Assembly: GCF_047777555.1 (NCBI RefSeq)
Contig: NZ_JBKEEV010000007.1
Span: 7,877-71,876 of the forward strand
Direction of reading: 5' to 3'
Origin: Clostridium sp.
GTDB lineage: Bacteria; Bacillota; Clostridia; Clostridiales; Clostridiaceae
Length of the DNA stretch: 64,000 nt
Notes under the pieces: generated by a model
The model's database searches: none
What the model was told of the DNA's origin: nothing
Seen by the model: only the letters and a program-made list of their open reading frames with translations
Part shown: positions 1,035 to 59,055 of the stretch, one piece after another
How the letters are laid out: the number at the start of each line of letters is the position of its first letter
Numbering within the stretch: position 1 is the stretch's first letter
Program-made: the position numbers and the translations under genes

Positions 1035-1306
1035 TATAACTGCAACACCTCCTTTTACTTATAGTTATTATGTTATTATTTCACTGTAATATTCACATTA
1101 CTTTTAAATTTGAAAGGAGATTACTTTGTAGTACAACTTAATATTAAATTAAAAATGTATGCCTTATATTTTTTGCTTTTAAAGTTATATGTAGTATATA
1201 ATAGATATATCTGTATACTTTGTTTTACATTGTAAACCCTACTTATTTTCACATAATTATAAAGTGCTTGCTTTTTGCGTTTGAAATTTAATACTAAAAT
1301 CATCAA

Positions 1307-1919
1307 ATTTGACTTATCTCTGAAACTGACTAACTTGACGTCCTTAGTCCCGCTTTCATTATAAAAGCCTCATTACTACTGCGAATCCATCTGTACCTAT
1401 GCTAAATTCATGCCATCCTTTGCCGTTCATCATCTAGGCAGTAAACAGATTTCCTCTAGACTTGTCTCGAAAGCCACATAAAGTTTTGGTTTTGACTGCA
1501 CTTATGAGTCTTAACGAAGCTTCAACAGTTCTTCATTTTCGTTCAGCTTTACAATACATACCTTACTGTTTTATACCGCCTTTTCCTAATTGTGCTCAGT
1601 ACCACAACTTTTAATTATAGTACTCAATTGTGTTTTGTGGTCTGTACCTACATATCGACCACGGTAGGCCAACTATCATCTCTTAAAAAGCATTGTCTCA
1701 CTAAATACTTCTAGCATTCAGGGAACACTATGTGCTAAACTACTATTGTCTATTATTAACATACCTTCATTGTTGGTAACAATCGTTAAACTCACCACCA
1801 TTTTACATTAGAAGTATCTTTTTTCTATTCAACGTTAAAAGCCATTTAGGACCACAGGAAGAACCAGCAGTATTTATTAACCCAAAGATCAATAGCTTAA
1901 TAAATAGTGCTATCGACCT
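1307..1919 (-). ncRNA. Candidate large structured non-coding RNA (or decayed sequence) downstream of topB; class not recognised
   Basis: There is no ORF of 60 aa or more in any frame. By hand count, two 60-nt blocks give about 38% and 45% G+C, visibly above the flanks. The minus strand is purine/G-rich. Local hairpins: 1328-1349 and 1769-1783. Interleaved pseudoknot-type pairing: gtggtc 1637-1642 with gaccac 1657-1662, and cctac 1647-1651 with gtagg 1664-1668. Confidence 0.3.
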
Positions 1920-4088
1920 TTATATCGTGTTAATAAATTCCATTTTCCATCTATAATATCCAGTTTCTATATTTATTTCATATCTTAAATATGCTGAAAA
2001 AGAAGTTCCTTTCTTACTTTTTAGATTTCTAAAACCAACTTTTCCATTTTTTAATAATAACTCTACCATATCTTTACTTACAGTTTTACCTAAAGATTTA
2101 ATAAATTTATCATTTTTCCAAATAGTGTAGTCACATCCATTCTTCCAGTTAATACATCCGAACCCCTTATCGCTTTCAATTATGTCATTACCACACACAG
2201 GGCACTTACCAACACTCTGTACACCTTCTGGAATCTCCACCTTAAAGTGTTTAAGCATAGAGTTGTCTTTCTTAATATCATCAATTGCCTTAACTGTAAA
2301 TTCCTTAATCATATTTAAAAAATCATTTTTTCTAAATTTACCTTTTTCAATATCATATAATGTTTTTTCCAGTCTACCTGTATATTCTAAATCCAATAAT
2401 TCCTTAACTGGAAATATTTCTATCAAAGTCCTCCCCAGTTCTGTGCAAGTGAGACTTTTTCCTTTAGTCTTTATGTACCCAACATCTTTTAACTTTTTAA
2501 TAGTTTCAGCTCTTGTTGCTGGTGTCCCAATACTAAATCCACTTAATATTGATGACATCATTTCTTCTGTATCATCTTCATCTTCTTTATACCCCTTACC
2601 ACAAGTCTCCATAACTCTTAGAAGAGTTTTCTCTGTATGTAACTTAGGAGGTTTCAGAGTAACAGTATTAACTTTAGAATCAACAATATCAATAATTTCT
2701 TTTTCAACTACAGCAGGTAATATATTATCTTTACTTTCTATATTTTCAATTACACGCCATCCTTCAACTATTTGAACCTTTCCCTTAGAAATGAATACTC
2801 CATTTATATTTTCATCATATACTTTGGCAGTGATCTTAGTTTCTTCAAATTCTGCTATAGGCATAAATTGCATTAAAAATCTATTTTTTATAGCCTCATA
2901 GACTATACTTTCATCACCAGTTAATTTCGATGGTTTTATGTAAGTAGGTACTATAGCACTATGACTCTCTACCTTAGAATTATCAAATATTCTCTTACTT
3001 TCAATAAATTTAATTTCATTTTCATAAGGTAATCCTTTTTTTAATATATCTAATACTTTTTTTGTTCTATCCTTTAGGCTTTCCTCCAGTGCTATACTTC
3101 CTGTTCTTGGATATGTTATAAATTTCTTTTCATATAAAGACTGAGCTACTTTTAAAACTTTATCAGATGTCCATCCCTTATGCTTACTTGTTATATATCC
3201 TTGTAAATTAGATAAATTGAATAAATATGGTGCATAATCCTTTTTTCTTTCAACCTGTTTTTCTATGACTTCAGCATTTTTAGTTTTTATAATTTCTGAA
3301 TAACTTTTTAATTTCACCTCATCATCGAACTTTTCAGAGTTTTTCTCATAATAAGTTGATTCAAATTCAATGTTATCTTTTGTCTTGAAATTTACAATTA
3401 ATTTATAATATTTAGTAGCCTTGAAGTCCTCATTTTCTTTATCTCTGTCATATATTATTTTTAAAGTTGGTAACAAAACTCTACCTACGTTTAATATTTT
3501 CTTATTATTGGGACTATATCTTAATGTTGACACTGATGTTAAATTTATTCCTATTATCCAATCAGCCCATTGTCTACCTATACCTGCATCCGTAAGATGC
3601 TGCATCTCTTCATTTTGCTTAATAGATTTTAATCCATTTAAAACTTCATTTGGAGTCCATTCATTAAGTAATAGCCTATATACGGGCTTATTTGTACCTA
3701 TATACTTAACTAATATATCCCCAATAATTTGCCCCTCTCTATCAAAATCGCAGGCTGAAATTATACTATCTACATCTTCCCTGTTCGCTAGTGTACTTAT
3801 AATCGAAATCTGCTTTTCTGCCCCTTTATCATTTTTATTCTTATTAACAGGGTCACATTTAATTTTATATTTAAACTGCTTTGGTATAAAAGGAAATTTG
3901 CTCAATTGCCACCTTGCCATTTCTATATCATAATCTTTAGCATCATATAGCTGCAGCAAATGTCCAAAGGCCCAGGTAACAATAAAGTCGTTTCCTTCGT
4001 AGTATCCATCTTTTCTTATCTTTATCTTTAGAGCATCTGATATATTTTTTGCAACTGATGGTTTTTCTGCAATAATTACCTTAGCCAT
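1920..4088 (-). CDS. topB: DNA topoisomerase III (type IA)
   Basis: 722 aa. Toprim acidic motif CDFDREGQ, active-site region FITYPRTGS, and a C-terminal zinc-ribbon (CPVCGN...GCINWKNGCDYTIW). RBS AAGGTGGTGGA. Confidence 0.9.
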   Translation of the reverse strand: MAKVIIAEKPSVAKNISDALKIKIRKDGYYEGNDFIVTWAFGHLLQLYDAKDYDIEMARWQLSKFPFIPKQFKYKIKCDPVNKNKNDKGAEKQISIISTLANREDVDSIISACDFDREGQIIGDILVKYIGTNKPVYRLLLNEWTPNEVLNGLKSIKQNEEMQHLTDAGIGRQWADWIIGINLTSVSTLRYSPNNKKILNVGRVLLPTLKIIYDRDKENEDFKATKYYKLIVNFKTKDNIEFESTYYEKNSEKFDDEVKLKSYSEIIKTKNAEVIEKQVERKKDYAPYLFNLSNLQGYITSKHKGWTSDKVLKVAQSLYEKKFITYPRTGSIALEESLKDRTKKVLDILKKGLPYENEIKFIESKRIFDNSKVESHSAIVPTYIKPSKLTGDESIVYEAIKNRFLMQFMPIAEFEETKITAKVYDENINGVFISKGKVQIVEGWRVIENIESKDNILPAVVEKEIIDIVDSKVNTVTLKPPKLHTEKTLLRVMETCGKGYKEDEDDTEEMMSSILSGFSIGTPATRAETIKKLKDVGYIKTKGKSLTCTELGRTLIEIFPVKELLDLEYTGRLEKTLYDIEKGKFRKNDFLNMIKEFTVKAIDDIKKDNSMLKHFKVEIPEGVQSVGKCPVCGNDIIESDKGFGCINWKNGCDYTIWKNDKFIKSLGKTVSKDMVELLLKNGKVGFRNLKSKKGTSFSAYLRYEINIETGYYRWKMEFINTI

Positions 4089-4100
4089 ACTTCCACCACC

Positions 4101-4661
4101 TTACTTTTGCTTTTTATCCTTGGTAGGTAATATTTCAACATTTGTTATATTACTATCCTTCATTATATTTTTCAAGTTTTTAATTATTTTATCTTTTTCA
4201 TCTATAATACTCTGTATTTTTTCTTTATCCTCTGTTAGCCTTAATATTTCTTTTTTATAATTTTCAACTTCAACTCTCAGTACATTAACATAGATAATAT
4301 TATCAAGAACCTTATCATACTGTCCTTTTATTTCTTTTAACTCCATATGTAATTGCTCAACTTTTCTTTCAGTAAAATAATCATCTTCATCCTGAATGCA
4401 TTTTTCAATATACTGCTCTAATAACTTGTCATTATAAACAGTTTTTCTAGTAAAACTCGTATTTTTTGAATTAGCAATATAAGATTTACTTAATTTTAGC
4501 TTCTTTATTTCTACTATTAGTTTCTGAATTTCAGCATGAGAATTCATCACAAGATTTTCTATTTCAAATAACCTCTTCTGAGTCTTAGCGTCTAGTTTTT
4601 CGTATGATGGATAATTTATTGCGCTAAGCTTATCATTGATAATTTGCTCTATTCCATCCAT
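4101..4661 (-). CDS. Coiled-coil protein in the TnpC position of a Tn554-type module
   Basis: 186 aa, highly charged with heptad-like sequence. Its start overlaps the stop of the upstream recombinase by 13 nt, as tnpB-tnpC do in Tn554-type elements. No recognisable catalytic motif. Confidence 0.55.
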   Translation of the reverse strand: MDGIEQIINDKLSAINYPSYEKLDAKTQKRLFEIENLVMNSHAEIQKLIVEIKKLKLSKSYIANSKNTSFTRKTVYNDKLLEQYIEKCIQDEDDYFTERKVEQLHMELKEIKGQYDKVLDNIIYVNVLRVEVENYKKEILRLTEDKEKIQSIIDEKDKIIKNLKNIMKDSNITNVEILPTKDKKQK

Positions 4662-6688
4662 GGCCCTATTTCCTTTCTTATATTGTCTAAATTTAATAAT
4701 ACTTCACCTATTTGAGGATATTTGTGTAAAATTGGATTTTGTCCAATTTTATTAATATCTTTATTCAGAAGCACAATTTGCTCCATTAAATTATTTCTCA
4801 CAAATATCTTTAATGCTTTCTCTTCTCTCTCGAATTCTAACATATAACTTTCATCTTCTTCAGCAATTTTTCTATTATGATTTACAATTGAAACTTTTTG
4901 ATGGAATCTTTCATATGAAAAATGAATGTATCTATAAGTAGGCAATGTATTTTCTAAAAAGTAGCTATCTGAAATGGAACTAAAATACTTCCTTCTTTCA
5001 CATAATCCACTTATAGTGGATCTAATACATATTCCCAGTTCATTTTCTACAATAGACGAATCTGTCTTATCTAGTAATTTAATGATTTTCCCTAGATCAT
5101 CTCTTATATTTAGCTTGCTACTTTTTAAAAAGTCATTGATCTTTTCTATATTGATTTTAAATTCCTCATTTTTCATTTCATTTTGAAGAAATTTGTTATT
5201 TATTAAATCAGGATTTGTTTCTATTAAACCTTCTACATTAGCAATACTTGACAATATATTTGTACCTTCTTCTAAAGAATCTATAAAGTCTTCACTTTTA
5301 TTATAGTAAGCACTCATATCTTCACTAAGATGATTTAAATGTTTAACTATAAAATCTAAATGAACACCTTGCATAAATAATTTAGTGCACACGGTAACCC
5401 TGAACATATGTGGATTTACATAATAAAATCTTTTATTCTTCACTTCTTCGAAGGAGAGATGATTTCTCTTTTCCAGTGAGAAATACTTTTCATACTTTGA
5501 TTTACTTTGAATCTTCAGTATTTTAAGATTTTCTTTTTGATTGTAAGGCATTGTTTCTATACTAAAATCATTTTCATGTCTAATAAAAAAACGCTCTAAA
5601 TTTTCTCTTAAAGGTACAATCCCCTTTTTTTGTAAGCCAGTTTTAGCACTAGTAAATAAATATCTTGTACTCTCTAGTTCTAGTTCCTTTAGCCTATCAT
5701 CATCTATCTCTGATATCATTTTCCTGAGCTCTTCCAAAGTTATAGGTCTCTTTAAGTCTTTCTTTGTGTGTAGAGTTATTAGTAGCCTTAACTTTGTCTT
5801 TTCAGAAAGATTTTCAATTATATTCTTAACTAAATTTTCACAGGTTCTGTAAGCCTTTAATGCTTTATCACTTAATGCAGTATAAGTTTCTCGAGTTCCT
5901 GATTTAAAAGTTAAAAATTTCAAATAACACAACTCTGTACCATTTACTACTATAGTATCAAGCTTATTTGTTTCTAATAAGCTCACTTCTTCTGCCCTCA
6001 TTCCTGTCTCAGCTAATAAGATCATTAGGCAAGCCATTATCCTATCATCCAGCTTCAATTTTTCATTATCTACGTCTTTAATTGCTAATGAGACTACTTC
6101 ATTTAAAAATTGATCTGGGATGTATTGATTTGCTGATTTGCTTGATCTTTTTTTAGTGCATGAACTAATTACTTTGTTTAGATAATTAACTATGTTTTCT
6201 AAATTATATCCATTAATATCTATAATAGAGTTTATCAATTTTTTAATTGAAATCGCTAATCCTCCTACATGATAGTTACCGCAATTTTTAAGCTTTTTTT
6301 CTATATATAACTCAATGATAGCTTTATCAATTAATCTAACATCTTTAATATTATATTTATATAAATCTTTTGTTAATCTTTGCAAATGTTCTTTTAGTTT
6401 ACTTGTACTTGTATAGCTATTTTTCTTTTTATTTAGCTCTTCAAATATAACAACTTTTATATAAAATATAAATGGCTCAGGTATAAAATTAAAGTCAAAC
6501 TTATATTTATATCTTTGACGATTATTAACATTCATTTCACTAAAATCCCATACCATATCACTAAACCATGTATTATTATTAATTTTGAAATTTATCCATT
6601 TTTTCTTTGCTTTATATACTTTCTTTGAATAATTATATTGAACAATAGAATTGTTATTAAAGTTATAATTTATTGCCTCTCTACTCAT
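4649..6688 (-). CDS. Large tyrosine recombinase (TnpB-like)
   Basis: 679 aa. Catalytic Arg region LLAETGMRAEEVSLL, the HxxR box PHMFRVT, and C-terminal HLNHLSEDMSAYY carrying the nucleophile Tyr. Confidence 0.8.
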   Translation of the reverse strand: MSREAINYNFNNNSIVQYNYSKKVYKAKKKWINFKINNNTWFSDMVWDFSEMNVNNRQRYKYKFDFNFIPEPFIFYIKVVIFEELNKKKNSYTSTSKLKEHLQRLTKDLYKYNIKDVRLIDKAIIELYIEKKLKNCGNYHVGGLAISIKKLINSIIDINGYNLENIVNYLNKVISSCTKKRSSKSANQYIPDQFLNEVVSLAIKDVDNEKLKLDDRIMACLMILLAETGMRAEEVSLLETNKLDTIVVNGTELCYLKFLTFKSGTRETYTALSDKALKAYRTCENLVKNIIENLSEKTKLRLLITLHTKKDLKRPITLEELRKMISEIDDDRLKELELESTRYLFTSAKTGLQKKGIVPLRENLERFFIRHENDFSIETMPYNQKENLKILKIQSKSKYEKYFSLEKRNHLSFEEVKNKRFYYVNPHMFRVTVCTKLFMQGVHLDFIVKHLNHLSEDMSAYYNKSEDFIDSLEEGTNILSSIANVEGLIETNPDLINNKFLQNEMKNEEFKINIEKINDFLKSSKLNIRDDLGKIIKLLDKTDSSIVENELGICIRSTISGLCERRKYFSSISDSYFLENTLPTYRYIHFSYERFHQKVSIVNHNRKIAEEDESYMLEFEREEKALKIFVRNNLMEQIVLLNKDINKIGQNPILHKYPQIGEVLLNLDNIRKEIGPWME

Positions 6689-6695
6689 AGAAATA

Positions 6696-8443
6696 CTATC
6701 CTTTCAGTTTCTGCATTTTATACATTTCAGCCAGAAACTTACCTAGCAATTTTTTTTGAATACTTAACTCTTTAATTTCTATTGGATTAAAAGATTTTTC
6801 AATAATTTTATTATATTCCAATATTTGTTGCTCAAAGTACGGGATTCTATTGATAAAAGTTACAAAAGACCTACACATTAAACACTCAGCAACATCAAAA
6901 GTACAGTGACCATTTTTGCATTTTCCTAAGTTTTTCTTTACAACTTTATATTTATTCTCCTTCTCAACCTCTAATATATTTCCGTATATATCCACATCAG
7001 AAATAGTCACTTTAGCCATAGCTTCAACATATAATTCTATCTCACTGTATTTTCTATAATACATGTTAGCAGTCTTATAACTATTTCCTGTAATACTAGT
7101 AATTTTGTTTATTGATAAATTATTTTGTACACCCATTTTATATACTGAATTAATAAAAAGTATGTCGAATATTATAAGGAAAATAATCTTTTATCTCGAG
7201 CTTCTCCTCTGACAGCTTTCAATATTGCCTTAAAATACCTATAGAAATTAATTCTTTTAACTTTAGTAACATGTTTTGCTCTATAAGGCTCAACGAATAT
7301 ATATTGTGCCATTATATCATTTCCTGAAATATAGGGTTCAGTTAAATTAATTGCTTCATCTATTAAAGCTGCTACATTTTCTGATATATTCTGCATTACA
7401 AATTCTTTATTACTTGTTTTTGATAAATATTTTAATTTTACATGTTCTTTTTCTTTATTTAAACAATCTCTTCTTAAATTATATATTTCGCCAATACGCA
7501 AATTTGTTAACATAAATATTTCATAAAGAATAGTATATAATCTTCCATTTTGAACTATCGATTCTTGTTTTTCAAACTGCTTATAAATAATACTTGCATC
7601 TTTTTCACTAATTGGTGTACCACCATCAAATTTTCCAAGTCCCTTTAAATTTAAAATATCTAAATCATTCTCTGTAACATTATACTTATCTTTGAAACAT
7701 TTCATGTATTTTCTAACTATTTTAAGTATTCCCTTTAGATGTCCATTTGACTTTACTGTATTCTCTATTGTACTTCTAAAATCCCATAAAAAATCTTCAG
7801 AAAATTCCTTGTATGAATTATTTAAATCCAATGCTATATTTACATACAGTTGATCATGGTTAACCTTGAAGTTTAAAAATTCAATTAGTTTATACATGTA
7901 GGTATTTGTAGTTCTTATATCTCCATCAATTTTCCATATAAAGTTTTTTACATCATTCTTATACTTTTGCGGCACATTTTCAAGATTTATAGCAGCAATC
8001 CTATAATTATTTCCACTTGAATTTAATAGTGTTTGAATAGAAGGAAGTACACAATACTTATCAGATTCAGGTGGCAATTCTAATCTATTATGATAAACAA
8101 AACAAAATCCTTTCTCATAATATTTATAAAAACTTTTTGAATAGATTACCTGCTTAAAACTTTTGCAAAATACATTATTATAATCTAGTTCTTCTAGCCT
8201 ATTAATAAAGTATCTATAGAATGCTACAAGATTTTGCTGTAACTTTTTAACATTAATTATAAGTTTTTTCTTTCTGTAATCATTATCCATCTTCTGATAA
8301 AACTTATACTGCAAATTAAAAGTTTGCTCATCAATATCTTCATATCTCTCTAGACGCTTTTCCCCTAAGCTTTCTACAAAATAATAAATAAAAATTCTCA
8401 TTTCCTTTGACTGTAAGCGTTCAGATTTATTATAGGATAGCAA
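6696..8443 (-). pseudogene. Tyrosine recombinase disrupted by two frameshifts (ORFs 7172-8443 and 6696-7136)
   Basis: The 423-aa ORF has the Arg-I region (LTNLRIGEIYNL) but ends before box II. The next frame reads LSEEKLEIKDYFPYNIRHTFY*. The third frame continues INSVYKMGVQNNLSINKITSITGNSYKTANMYYRKY (the 146-aa ORF, which has no RBS). Read together the three pieces give a normal recombinase C-terminus. Confidence 0.7.
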
Positions 8444-8471
8444 GAAGTTAGTAAGTATATTTCTTATAAAT

Positions 8472-9134
8472 TTACAACCTGTTTCTTATATTAAAATTTG
8501 CGTTCAAAATAGAATCCTTATTCTTTGTTGAATAATATTCTACTTGAATTACTTCGTTATAGTTGGATTCTAGTGGAAAGTTGCTTAAAATATTTCTTTC
8601 TAAATTTAAATATTCATTATCTGTTTCAATAGTTAAACTTTCATAATTTGAGTAGTTTAATAGCAAATGCTTATATTCATTTACTTCTTTAATATTTTTC
8701 ATAGACTTATATCTTACATTATTGCAAAGTAATAAATAAAATTTATTAAGAATATCATAAAAGTCTAAATGCCCTACCATAAGCTTCTTTTTTTCATAAT
8801 ACTTAAATAATCGTTTTATAGATACACCTATTTCTTTCCTTTTATAATATCTTATTGCTTCACTTAATTTATCGTTAAAATTGCTATTATGTAATTCACA
8901 AATTACGTTCCAGTTAAGATCACTTATCTTATAGTTTTTCATATAATTAATTATATAAAACCATCCTACAATCCTTTTATACATTTGCATGCTATATAAA
9001 AATGTATTACCTTTATAAAAGTCATCATATAGAAATCTTGATAACTCTTTCTTCATATCTATATATTCTACTGTAGAATTGATACATTGTTGCAAATCAC
9101 TCATATACTTTTTTAAAGTATCTTTATCAATCAT
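8472..9134 (-). CDS. Hypothetical protein carried by the element
   Basis: 220-aa ORF with an AGGAGA RBS. No recognisable motif. Lies between two recombinase genes. Confidence 0.5.
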   Translation of the reverse strand: MIDKDTLKKYMSDLQQCINSTVEYIDMKKELSRFLYDDFYKGNTFLYSMQMYKRIVGWFYIINYMKNYKISDLNWNVICELHNSNFNDKLSEAIRYYKRKEIGVSIKRLFKYYEKKKLMVGHLDFYDILNKFYLLLCNNVRYKSMKNIKEVNEYKHLLLNYSNYESLTIETDNEYLNLERNILSNFPLESNYNEVIQVEYYSTKNKDSILNANFNIRNRL

Positions 9135-9191
9135 TTCTATTATCTCCTAGTGTTACCTTTTATTTTATCAAGTATCTCCTTTTGTATTTTT

Positions 9192-10265
9192 TCAGTTTTC
9201 CTTTAATTGATCCTCAGGTTTAGGATTATAATACTTCAATGTAGACTGTATACTTTTATGTCTCATTTCTTTTTGAACATAAGAGATATCTTTATTTAAT
9301 TCATCAATCAAATACATAGCATATCCATGTCTAAATCTATGATTTAAATTATCCTCCTTACTATTCTTATCTATCGAAATACCTATCTTAATAAAAATCT
9401 CTTTGAGAAAATTATTCCATCCTGAAGGTGATAATGGACTTCCATTCTTGTTTAAAAATAGGTAGTAATTTCTTCTTGTATTTTCTCCTACACAGTCTGC
9501 CTTCGCATATTTCATGATATTTTCCAATTTTCTTTCCGTTTGATTTAGAATATCTCTAGATATTTCTTGATATTTTCTGACTTCATCCATTAATTTTATT
9601 GGCAAAGCCACAACCTGATACCCACCTTCTCTTTCACTATTATAGATTTTTGTCTTATACATTTCTGAAGAAAAAACCTTCATGCACCCTTTTGCATGTT
9701 GATATTTCTTATCACTTACTCTATTTCTCAAGTAAAGTTGACCTGCTCTCTTATCATCGGGATGAGGAATAATGTCCTCTAATGTAATTCCTAATACTTC
9801 ACCAATCCTCAATCCTCTTAAAAACATTAGATCTATAATCAATTTATTCCTTAATTTAAACTCTGATCTGACATTTTCATCAATGTATTCCAAAACTCTA
9901 GTATATTCTTTAACTGAAATATACTTAGGAACATATTGATTAAAACCCTTATGCCTTGATTTATTTGTTGTATATTTGCTTGTCACAATTACTTTATTTG
10001 CACTATAGCTAATTTTATCAGTGACAAATTGTACCTTATCAAAAAATTCATTTTTATTAAATCTAGAAAACATTATATACTTTCTGATGTCATCAAAGTA
10101 TGTATTATGAGTTGTTATTGTCCTATTAGTCTTAAATATATACCTTTCAATATTTCCTTCTATATTATGGCCTAAAATAAAATGTGATAAATTAATAATA
10201 TCTGTCTTGTCAAGTTCCTGTATTTCCCTTCCAATAATTTCACTAAAAGAATATAATAACTTCAA
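9192..10265 (-). CDS. Tyrosine recombinase (TnpA-like); the true N-terminus probably extends upstream
   Basis: Motifs: LRGLRIGEVLGI (Arg I), HRFRHGYAMY (HxxR) and MRHKSIQSTLKYY (His/Tyr). The same frame stays open upstream to ~10517 and encodes a core-binding-like segment (FLLNSKGEVIEEVFNYLNYY...REQAASALKLLYSF) with no ATG, GTG or TTG. Confidence 0.8.
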   Translation of the reverse strand: MKLLYSFSEIIGREIQELDKTDIINLSHFILGHNIEGNIERYIFKTNRTITTHNTYFDDIRKYIMFSRFNKNEFFDKVQFVTDKISYSANKVIVTSKYTTNKSRHKGFNQYVPKYISVKEYTRVLEYIDENVRSEFKLRNKLIIDLMFLRGLRIGEVLGITLEDIIPHPDDKRAGQLYLRNRVSDKKYQHAKGCMKVFSSEMYKTKIYNSEREGGYQVVALPIKLMDEVRKYQEISRDILNQTERKLENIMKYAKADCVGENTRRNYYLFLNKNGSPLSPSGWNNFLKEIFIKIGISIDKNSKEDNLNHRFRHGYAMYLIDELNKDISYVQKEMRHKSIQSTLKYYNPKPEDQLKEN

Positions 10266-10587: not shown

Positions 10588-12090
<1,503 letters not shown>

Positions 12091-34359: not shown

Positions 34360-35082
34360 ATGAAAATTGATATTATTATTTCAGCAAATGATATTAAGAA
34401 AGAAAAAATTAAAGATAAAACAGTAGTTATTATAGATATACTTAGAGCTACATCTGTAATAATTACTGCTCTTAATAATGGATGTAATGAAGTAATTCCT
34501 GTAGTAGATGTGGAGGATGCAAAAAACTTAGTTAAAGATAGCAGAGAGAAATATATTCTAGGTGGGGAAAGAAATGCATTAAAAATTGATGGCTTTGATT
34601 TCTCTAATTCACCATTAGAGTATACTGAAGATATTGTAAAAAATAGAACTTTAGTAATGACTACAACTAATGGTACAAAAGCAATACACGGCACCTTAGG
34701 TGCAAAACATATATTAATAGGCGCTTTTATAAATGCAAAAGCTGTGGCTCAAAAGGCTATTGAGTTAAATAATGATTTAGTTATAGTTAATGCTGGAACC
34801 CGCGGTGAATTTTCTATGGATGATTTTATATGCAGCGGATACATAATAGAATGTATTTTAAAAAATGCATGTGTAGATTTATCTGACATCGCTGCTACTG
34901 CTCACTACATTTATACTCAAAATACAGATATACTAGGATTTTTAAGTAAAGCAAGGCATTATAAAGTACTTATGAATCTGGGACTTCAAAAGGATATAGA
35001 ATATTGCTGCAAAACTGATATCATAGATATAGTTCCTAGCTGCGACCTCACTTCTTATGGAATAAGAATACAAAAAAAGTGA
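34360..35082 (+). CDS. comB: 2-phosphosulfolactate phosphatase family protein
   Basis: 240 aa with the family motifs [11 protein letters not shown] and [16 protein letters not shown]. Confidence 0.8.
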
Positions 35083-35140
35083 TATTCAAAAGAATATCAC
35101 TTTAATTAACCGTATTTAAAACAATCTATTTAAATACTAA

Positions 35141-35341
35141 TTATAGTTTAACTACGTTAGCAGCTTGAGGTCCTCTAGCTCCCTCAGTTACTTCGAATTC
35201 AACTTTTTGGCCTTCTTCTAAAGTCTTGAATCCGTCTCCTTGGATAGCTGAGAAATGAACGAATACGTCATCTTCTCCTTCTACAGATATGAACCCAAAT
35301 CCTTTTTCTGCGTTAAACCATTTAACTGTTCCTGTTTTCAT
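35141..35341 (-). CDS. cspA: Cold-shock protein
   Basis: 66 aa with RNP motifs KGFGFI and VFVHF. Confidence 0.95.
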
Positions 35342-35901
35342 TGAAAAAATTCCTCCTAAAAAATCTTAAAATATATGCACACAGATTTCTACTTTTATGC
35401 GGAAACCAGCGAACAAACTACTTCATATTGTTCTCATCTTTATAGAATGAATCGGCCAATATTTTTAGCTTACTCAGTACATTATACTAATGGTATCATA
35501 TATAAATTCCATTGTCAATAAATCTATTTGCCCATTCATTCTGTTTCCTTGTTCTCTATTAGTTTTCCCAAAGAAATTTTTTATATTCACAAAATAATAA
35601 AAATACGATGCAATTTTATTATGTATAACATCACACATGGGATTTGCATTTAGAAAAGCTTCACTTCTCAAATAAGCTAAAAGGCAGTGGAAAAAGTGTA
35701 GGGAATATAGACGCTAAAGCGCTGAGTTTAGAAAATACCGATAATCTTTTTAATAAAATACATAACCAATTCATGTAAAAAATTACAATTTAAAACCACA
35801 GGTTCTATTACGTTCATTGCAGCTTGTTAGCAATAGCAGCAAACTTATATTAGTAGATGAAAAATGCTGCTGATATATATGTTATCAGCAACATTTCTTT
35901 G

Positions 35902-58834: not shown

Positions 58835-59055
58835 AAAAAGACCTACTTCTGCCCCAAAAAGGGGCGGAAAGTAGGTCCGCGGTACCACCCAAATTTATCA
58901 CTCATTTCACATAACGGCACAAGCCGGCTCAGCTTACTAAAACTTCAGCCTACGGCTCAAGGATGATTTTCAGCAACCTTAGTATGTGGGTTCTCACCTA
59001 TCTCCACTCTCTGTAAGACATATCTTTGCTTACTCTTTCCTATCATCGCTTTGAA
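58835..59055 (-). promoter_or_regulatory. T-box leader riboswitch, probable AUC (Ile) specifier
   Basis: On the minus strand: a stem I with GA/K-turn (GCGAUGAU...UGAGC), an AGAGAG box, a GGUGAGA distal loop, and a specifier loop GAAAAUCA before helix UCCU. The T-box motif AAAUUUGGGUGGUACCGCGG is at plus 58877-58896. A terminator follows (gacctacttctgcccc / ggggcggaaagtaggtc, 58840-58877) with a U-run. Confidence 0.85.

Follow-up and report, generated by a model that had tools for sequence, protein, structure and literature searches.

A probable RF01999-lineage group II intron remnant downstream of topB in a Clostridium integrative element

Location and composition of the segment

The segment at positions 1303–1728 of the Clostridium sp. 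DNA analyzed here (a stretch of 64,000 nucleotides, referred to as the window) is very probably what is left of a mobile group II intron belonging to the RF01999 lineage, a dead copy that sequence comparison shows to be both truncated and internally deleted. It lies among the cargo of an integrative element, immediately downstream of the element's topB gene, and five of seven features of a functional group II intron fail in it.

The topB gene (1920–4088, minus strand) belongs to the element and codes for a 722-residue type IA topoisomerase with Pfam matches to Topoisom_bac (7.9e-97), Toprim and Toprim_Crpt; it is directly upstream of, and on the same strand as, the interval 1307–1919, which a preliminary description had put forward as a candidate large structured RNA. 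Reading along the minus strand, the topB stop codon is followed by a 191 nt spacer (1729–1919) with an AT-rich imperfect hairpin at 1866–1911, seen both as a self-complementary blastn match and in the minimum free energy (MFE) fold, and then by the intron remnant (1303–1728), which is delimited by MAFFT alignment, an nhmmer family profile and Rfam. The remnant covers the greater part of domain I, followed by the domain III/IV junction and, beyond it, the 5' strand of domain IVa. A second AT-rich spacer (1035–1302, minus strand) has no intron homology and leads to a DUF3888 gene (639–1034). About 70% of the reported interval (1303–1728) is thus intron-derived, and 1729–1919 is something else.

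As described previously, 1307–1919 has no coding potential. No ORFs longer than 50 aa overlap it, each of the six frames has 10–20 stops, and no frame stays open for more than 68 codons. Its G+C content (36.2%) is indeed higher than in its surroundings (topB coding sequence, 29.4%; remaining genes of the element, 25.8%; downstream spacer, 22.0%), but the excess is confined to the remnant (38.0%), with just 31.9% in 1729–1919. We attribute both the higher G+C content and the absence of ORFs to the presence of ribozyme sequence in an AT-rich genome. The purine skew that had been regarded as distinctive does not set the interval apart, as 57.6% purine on the minus strand compares with 61.3% in topB, 59–61% in the flanking genes and 58.3% in the window as a whole. 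Predicted folding is similarly ordinary: the MFE of the whole 613 nt is not exceptional relative to shuffled sequences (z = -0.9, with 4 of 20 shuffles equally stable), and the 5' spacer gives the same value (z = -0.9). The earlier characterization as a large structured RNA is correct as to descent, and the signals on which it was based (G+C enrichment, lack of ORFs, hairpins) are real. A scan of the segment for promoter-like sites gives 12, compared to 8.9 +/- 2.7 in shuffles, and thus no enrichment. Because a terminator scan finds no terminator-like site between topB and the intron fragment, passive transcription of the remnant along with the 3' region of topB is probable.

Homology to group II introns

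Comparison of the whole window with all 4227 families of Rfam 15 identifies a match to the full RF01999 model (group-II-D1D4-2, positions 1–118) at 1677–1560 on the minus strand, with a score of 71.4 bits relative to a gathering score of 36 bits, and an E-value of 2.4e-12. This is the sole Rfam match at gathering in the interval, and it supersedes the previous statement that the sequence could not be matched to any RNA class. A permissive scan of 1000–2300 (E≤10) adds only snoRNA and miRNA noise with E-values of 7–9. Several other RNAs had been suggested as candidates (OLE, ROOL, GOLLD, HEARO, raiA, and the group I intron), and none of these is found in 1000–2300 either at gathering or at E≤10; tmRNA, RNase P and T-box matches are absent from the same region at both thresholds, in agreement with the preliminary description. 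Elsewhere in the window a T-box leader (58857–59055, minus strand; 119 bits) and a cspA thermoregulator (35073–35386, minus strand; 82 bits) score above Rfam gathering, and both are unrelated to the intron.

The proposed blastn search for homologues, when directed at plasmids, gives matches just upstream of annotated ltrA genes in two Clostridium plasmids, of C. estertheticum and C. tagluense, and in the C. estertheticum plasmid pDSM14864-244 the matching stretch stops 16 nt short of ltrA. The ltrA gene codes for the group II intron reverse transcriptase/maturase. MAFFT alignments, whether of 12 family copies or of all 36, show colinear homology from approximately 1728 to 1303. A DNA profile of 555 positions, constructed from the 5' parts of 10 intact copies and reaching from the intron start as far as the maturase ATG, was used with nhmmer and aligns in two parts. 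The first (1696–1396, minus strand) corresponds to the domain I body at profile positions 50–351 (125.3 bits, E 4.3e-38), with the envelope extending to 1717; the second (1402–1303, minus strand) corresponds to profile positions 438–537 (E 2.2e-13) and includes GCAGUAGUA at the domain III/IV junction together with the 5' strand of domain IVa. The window copy shares 55–65% identity with sampled relatives, and its RF01999 score of 71 bits compares with 93–119 bits for intact relatives. A phage collection that was also searched has no match to the segment. The segment derives from a large structured RNA of a known kind, and not from a new RNA class.

The individual structures that had been described can be placed in this context. 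The interleaved pseudoknot-type pairing at 1637–1668 is present in that CCUAC and GUAGG can form all five pairs, but the ten relatives compared keep just 2–4 of the five, whereas the nested hairpins of the RF01999 model are kept at 5/5 and 6/6 pairs (5/6 in one relative) with covariation, and the hairpin within 1637–1668 is the second hairpin of that model. The interleaved pairing is probably a chance occurrence. The GACUAA/UUAGUC hairpin at 1328–1349 is present and is located in the domain IVa strand, and the AUUGUU/AACAAU hairpin at 1769–1783 is also present, within the 1729–1919 spacer.

The preliminary description raised the prospect of a large structured non-coding RNA, of a class not seen before, working together with the tyrosine-recombinase/TopB element, to which we give virtually no credence. 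The interval is ORF-free and G+C-enriched, is on the sense strand of the element and has hairpins, but every one of these signals is explained by homology to the known intron family, no other Rfam family is present at gathering with matches at E≤10 being at chance level, the relatives do not conserve the pseudoknot, the MFE is unremarkable, and the fragment is missing from a related element (see below).

Relatives of the intron

Using the most conserved block of the family (CTAGAGGAAAYCTGTTTACTG) as a retrieval pattern, we identified 12 copies in a set of bacterial contigs with one genome per species, mostly in Clostridium, with others in Paenibacillus, Fonticella, Hathewaya and additional genera. 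From metagenome contigs the same pattern retrieves 24 family copies, none of which is closer to the window copy than ~70–86% in local blocks, and a metagenome scan with the window-specific pattern GTGGTCGNNNNGTAGNNNNAGACCACAAAACA gives zero closer relatives. Neither the genome nor the metagenome scans gave a full-length relative with more than ~85% identity, and we therefore can only infer the order of the decay events discussed below.

The genome copies score 93–119 bits with RF01999 and, where the contig allows, are followed by RF00029 (domain V/VI) at 50–60 bits. The C. estertheticum and C. tagluense plasmid loci have RF01999 scores of 111–112 bits with RF00029 after ltrA. The distance from RF01999 to RF00029 is ~1.7 kb in one locus (L001) and nearly 4 kb in another (L002), where ltrA is much further from the intron 5' part than in L001. 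The family maturase is 414 residues long and lacks an endonuclease domain. Its nearest solved relatives are of the IIC type (7uim, 7e-44; GsI-IIC, 2e-40) with IIB and IIA maturases not far behind, a difference that is not decisive as to the class of the intron. Domain V of L001 has an AGC triad.

In 23 of the 27 RF01999-type copies with enough flanking sequence for junction analysis, the intron is inserted exactly 1 nt downstream of R(Y/F)(A/V/C)DD codons in a second reverse transcriptase (RT) gene (the 5' junctions are from L001, L002, L008, L011–L014, L016, L023, L027, L028, L030–L033, L036–L040 and L044–L046). The host RT gene is usually the maturase gene of a different group II intron, and these arrangements are thus twintrons. 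The homing into intron ORFs that is reported in Methanosarcina is a parallel to this RYADD-site insertion (cited in PMC4424553).

One member of the family, in C. tetanomorphum (L012, 3294–3898), is a ~600 nt copy without a maturase gene that scores 118.6 bits with RF01999 and 41 bits with RF00029. In this copy domain III is followed by a domain V with a CGC triad, as opposed to the AGC triad of L001. Rather than being a true ORF-less intron it may result from a deletion fusing the 5' part of an inner intron to the 3' part of an outer intron. We considered it as a clean model of an ORF-less intron and dropped it, as its domain V is unlike that of L001 and may be that of the outer intron.

Defects of the window copy

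At its 5' end the window copy reads GUGUUCCCUGAAUGC in alignment with GUGCGCCACGAAUGC of L011. The first five bases are a degenerate GUGUU (1728–1724, minus strand), whereas every listed family copy with a full start has GTGCG or GTGTG. Position 1728 is probably the intron 5' boundary; the assignment is just probable because the first ~45 nt are variable within the family and are outside of the significant nhmmer alignment. Inspection by eye for EBS/IBS pairing revealed no complement of the putative EBS1 loop adjoining 1729, and the flank is without the RYADD target seen in 23/27 relatives. The preliminary description had reported neither a canonical GUGYG nor a domain V, and both absences are confirmed by the alignment and the RF00029 scan; the altered 5' pentamer and the missing domain V are the reasons why it had dismissed group II introns.

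A second defect is internal. A block of ~86 nt, corresponding to profile positions 352–437, is absent from the window copy as aligned by nhmmer, although it is kept in 36/36 other family copies, including ones that are cut elsewhere by contig ends. The two nhmmer alignments share a single GCAUAGG (GCATAGG in the DNA; 1402–1396, minus strand) at the deletion junction, where in intact copies the block is bounded by a pair of similar short repeats, suggesting that the loss occurred by deletion between short direct repeats. RNAalifold analysis of the intact copies shows that a 5' CCACG pairs with CGUGG in the missing block to form the closing helix of domain I, and that the block also carries the next helices, which by their position are predicted to be domains II–III.

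The third defect is the loss of the entire 3' part. Homology ends at 1303, which corresponds to position 537 of the 555 in the profile. Beyond this point relatives have AAAGGAGGAG, leading to the AUG of the maturase gene, and the window copy thus ends just before the maturase ribosome-binding site (Shine-Dalgarno sequence). A tblastn search of the 64-kb window with the L001 maturase identifies no significant remnant of that gene, the best match being 22 aa at 62.8 kb with an E-value of 0.06, and RF00029 is found neither in the 64-kb window at gathering nor in 1000–2300 at E≤10. A circularly permuted group II intron was also considered and rejected, since there is no RF00029 match in 1729–2300 and the hairpin at 1866–1911, with its 12 nt loop and no bulge, is not domain V-like.

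The base pairing of what remains records both descent and decay. The family consensus has 146 base pairs, of which 42 are lost with the deletion and 104 have both partners present. In the window copy 79 of these 104 (76%) are canonical, compared to 97–100% in the intact copies, from which the consensus structure was built, such that their own fit is partly by construction. There are 14 compensatory double changes (for example GUGGUC/GACCAC in place of the GAAAUC/GAUUUC of relatives), and 25 of the 104 pairs are broken. The compensatory changes indicate that the window copy comes from a once-functional, diverged sublineage, and the broken pairs together with the deletions indicate decay since then.

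We propose that a functional intron of a diverged sublineage would have inserted at, or been carried to, this site, and would then have lost everything from the maturase ribosome-binding site onward, as well as ~86 nt by deletion between short direct repeats. Point mutations would have accumulated, including the change of G5 to U in the 5' pentamer and those responsible for the 25 broken helix pairs. With the domain I closing strand, domains II–III, the maturase and domains V and VI all gone, the established architecture of group II introns leaves no catalytic core, and neither splicing nor retrohoming can occur.

The surviving structure raises the question as to whether the fragment has been co-opted, such as for stabilizing the topB mRNA as a 3' UTR, as a maturase decoy acting through domain IVa, or as the 5' half of a trans-splicing intron with its 3' half outside the window. 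Most of the domain I helices still pair (79/104, with 14 compensatory changes), the 5' strand of domain IVa is retained right up to the maturase ribosome-binding site, and the scan predicts no terminator separating the fragment from topB. However, the domain I closing strand and the domain II–III block are deleted, the 5' pentamer has changed, the 64 kb contain neither a maturase gene nor domain V, and the fold stability is unexceptional (z = -0.9). We consider co-option to be very improbable, and the distribution of the fragment among related elements also bears on it.

The fragment and the TopB element

The same 1.5 kb of sequence is 100% identical in four other assemblies carrying an identical TopB. 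This identity could be taken in support of co-option, but the four copies are the same element and not instances of independent conservation, so that selection is neither shown nor excluded by them. TopB homologues at 72–76% identity are common in Clostridium, and we examined three. Two of these are plain chromosomal topB genes. The third is on a related C. perfringens element with a TopB that is 74% identical and a gene order as in the window, with recombinases, a 677-residue protein, a 173-residue protein, and then TopB; the 677-residue protein is 40% identical to the 679-residue protein of the window. None of the three TopB loci examined has intron homology or an Rfam match after topB, and in the C. 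perfringens element topB is followed by an ordinary terminator and then by defence cargo. The lack of intron sequence after topB in the related element shows that the fragment is not a conserved component of this element type, which counts against co-option and removes the basis for the suggestion of an RNA partner of the tyrosine-recombinase/TopB element. Searches for repeats linking the segment to the element ends give only AT-rich matches at chance level.

A more specific form of retention can be imagined, in which the fossil is kept for a function, the likeliest being protection or regulation of the topB transcript by a structured 3' UTR, and the alternative a domain IVa strand that titrates the maturases of active introns in the same cell; we hold this to be a scarcely credible account of the segment. 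Our preferred interpretation is the dead, truncated intron copy. As such the finding is one more inactivated group II intron copy in mobile DNA, a kind that is already known and of little biological weight. Its value is in annotation, as it accounts for a puzzling ORF-free and G+C-richer block and removes the suggestion of an RNA partner for the element. It also illustrates that truncated introns escape a check based on GUGYG plus domain V but are found by covariance models of domain I.

Several features of the two elements are noted here in their own right. The insertion site of the three-recombinase/TopB element of the window appears to be within glpK. The final ~1030 nt of the intact glpK in the window (coordinates ~10588–11615, residues 155–496) recur in L003 (12075–13101) with 89.6% identity and in frameshifted form, and this second copy of the glpK 3' part lies ~13.6 kb downstream, beyond the left end of the window; it seems that glpK, on being split, receives a substitute 3' part from the element. 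Within 4649–10265 the 357-aa and 679-aa ORFs match Pfam Phage_integrase above the gathering score, a 423-aa ORF scores 23.9 bits, below the cut-off of 27.1, and small ORFs without Pfam matches are present between the recombinase ORFs, an arrangement that may resemble recombinase-trio or Tn554-like modules. The C. perfringens element (L020/L021, 801–16166) is inserted in a chromosomal topB gene, with a 124-residue Toprim fragment upstream and a 607-residue fragment downstream, and carries a full topB, an Mrr-like gene, and a CBASS set (SMODS, E1/E2, JAB and SAVED).

The spacer between topB and the remnant

The 1729–1919 spacer has no homology in the element relatives and no Rfam match at E≤10. 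At the corresponding site after topB the relatives have an ordinary terminator or unrelated sequence, compared to the hairpin in the window. This hairpin (1911–1866) has a 17 bp stem with two mismatches, a 12 nt loop, and no U tract after it, and a second copy was not found elsewhere in the element.

We note a possible, if somewhat doubtful, reading in which 1729–1919 is either a decayed piece of the RT gene that originally hosted the intron, or a site in the DNA of the element, for example a hairpin used in recombination or located at a cargo junction. Descent from an RT gene would accord with the location of 23/27 relatives right after the RYADD codons of another RT gene; in addition, the window flank AGT TTA GCA CAT A/GTGTT (with the slash marking the junction) loosely resembles AGA TAT GCA GAT GAT T/GTGCG, and one frame reads VVLNGF-stop-R-stop-IEKRY where RT genes have iyLdeLdkelekr. 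However, a protein HMM of the RT flank, for which 19 copies qualified and supplied 17 distinct upstream flanks, gives 1729–1919 a non-significant score of -1.2 bits (E 0.36, with three sequences searched), an nhmmer search with the DNA HMM of the RT flank has no match, a tblastn search with RT fragments of outer introns gives a best E-value of ~1, and a Pfam search of three frames with stops masked gives no match. For a DNA site the position of the 17 bp hairpin directly after the topB stop codon is suggestive, but the hairpin is repeated nowhere else in the element.

Comparison with known systems

An example of a full-length copy of the RF01999 lineage is that in C. estertheticum pDSM14864-244 (NZ_CP086250.1, ~116.57–118.45 kb; ltrA product WP_071612465.1). 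The window copy is colinear with it over domain I and the domain III/IV–IVa region and has the same Rfam motif, with helices largely kept, several of them through compensatory changes. It differs from the C. estertheticum copy in starting with GUGUU and in being without the ~86 nt core block, the 414-residue maturase gene and domains V and VI, and differs from most of its RF01999-lineage relatives in that it is not placed after RYADD codons.

Bacterial group II introns without an ORF are represented by C.te.I1 of Clostridium tetani (PMC4424553). The window copy is similar to such introns, and to L012, in its size (~600 nt) and its lack of a maturase gene, and L012 also shares the 5' part. The ORF-less introns nonetheless keep domains V and VI and an intact core, and the window copy is without either. 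There is also a parallel with truncated or inactivated copies, which are described as the majority state of group II introns in bacteria (Zimmerly & Semper 2015, PMC4424553). Like those, the window copy has no catalytic domains and no maturase and is located inside other mobile DNA; it differs from them in nothing of substance, and is a further instance of the same kind.
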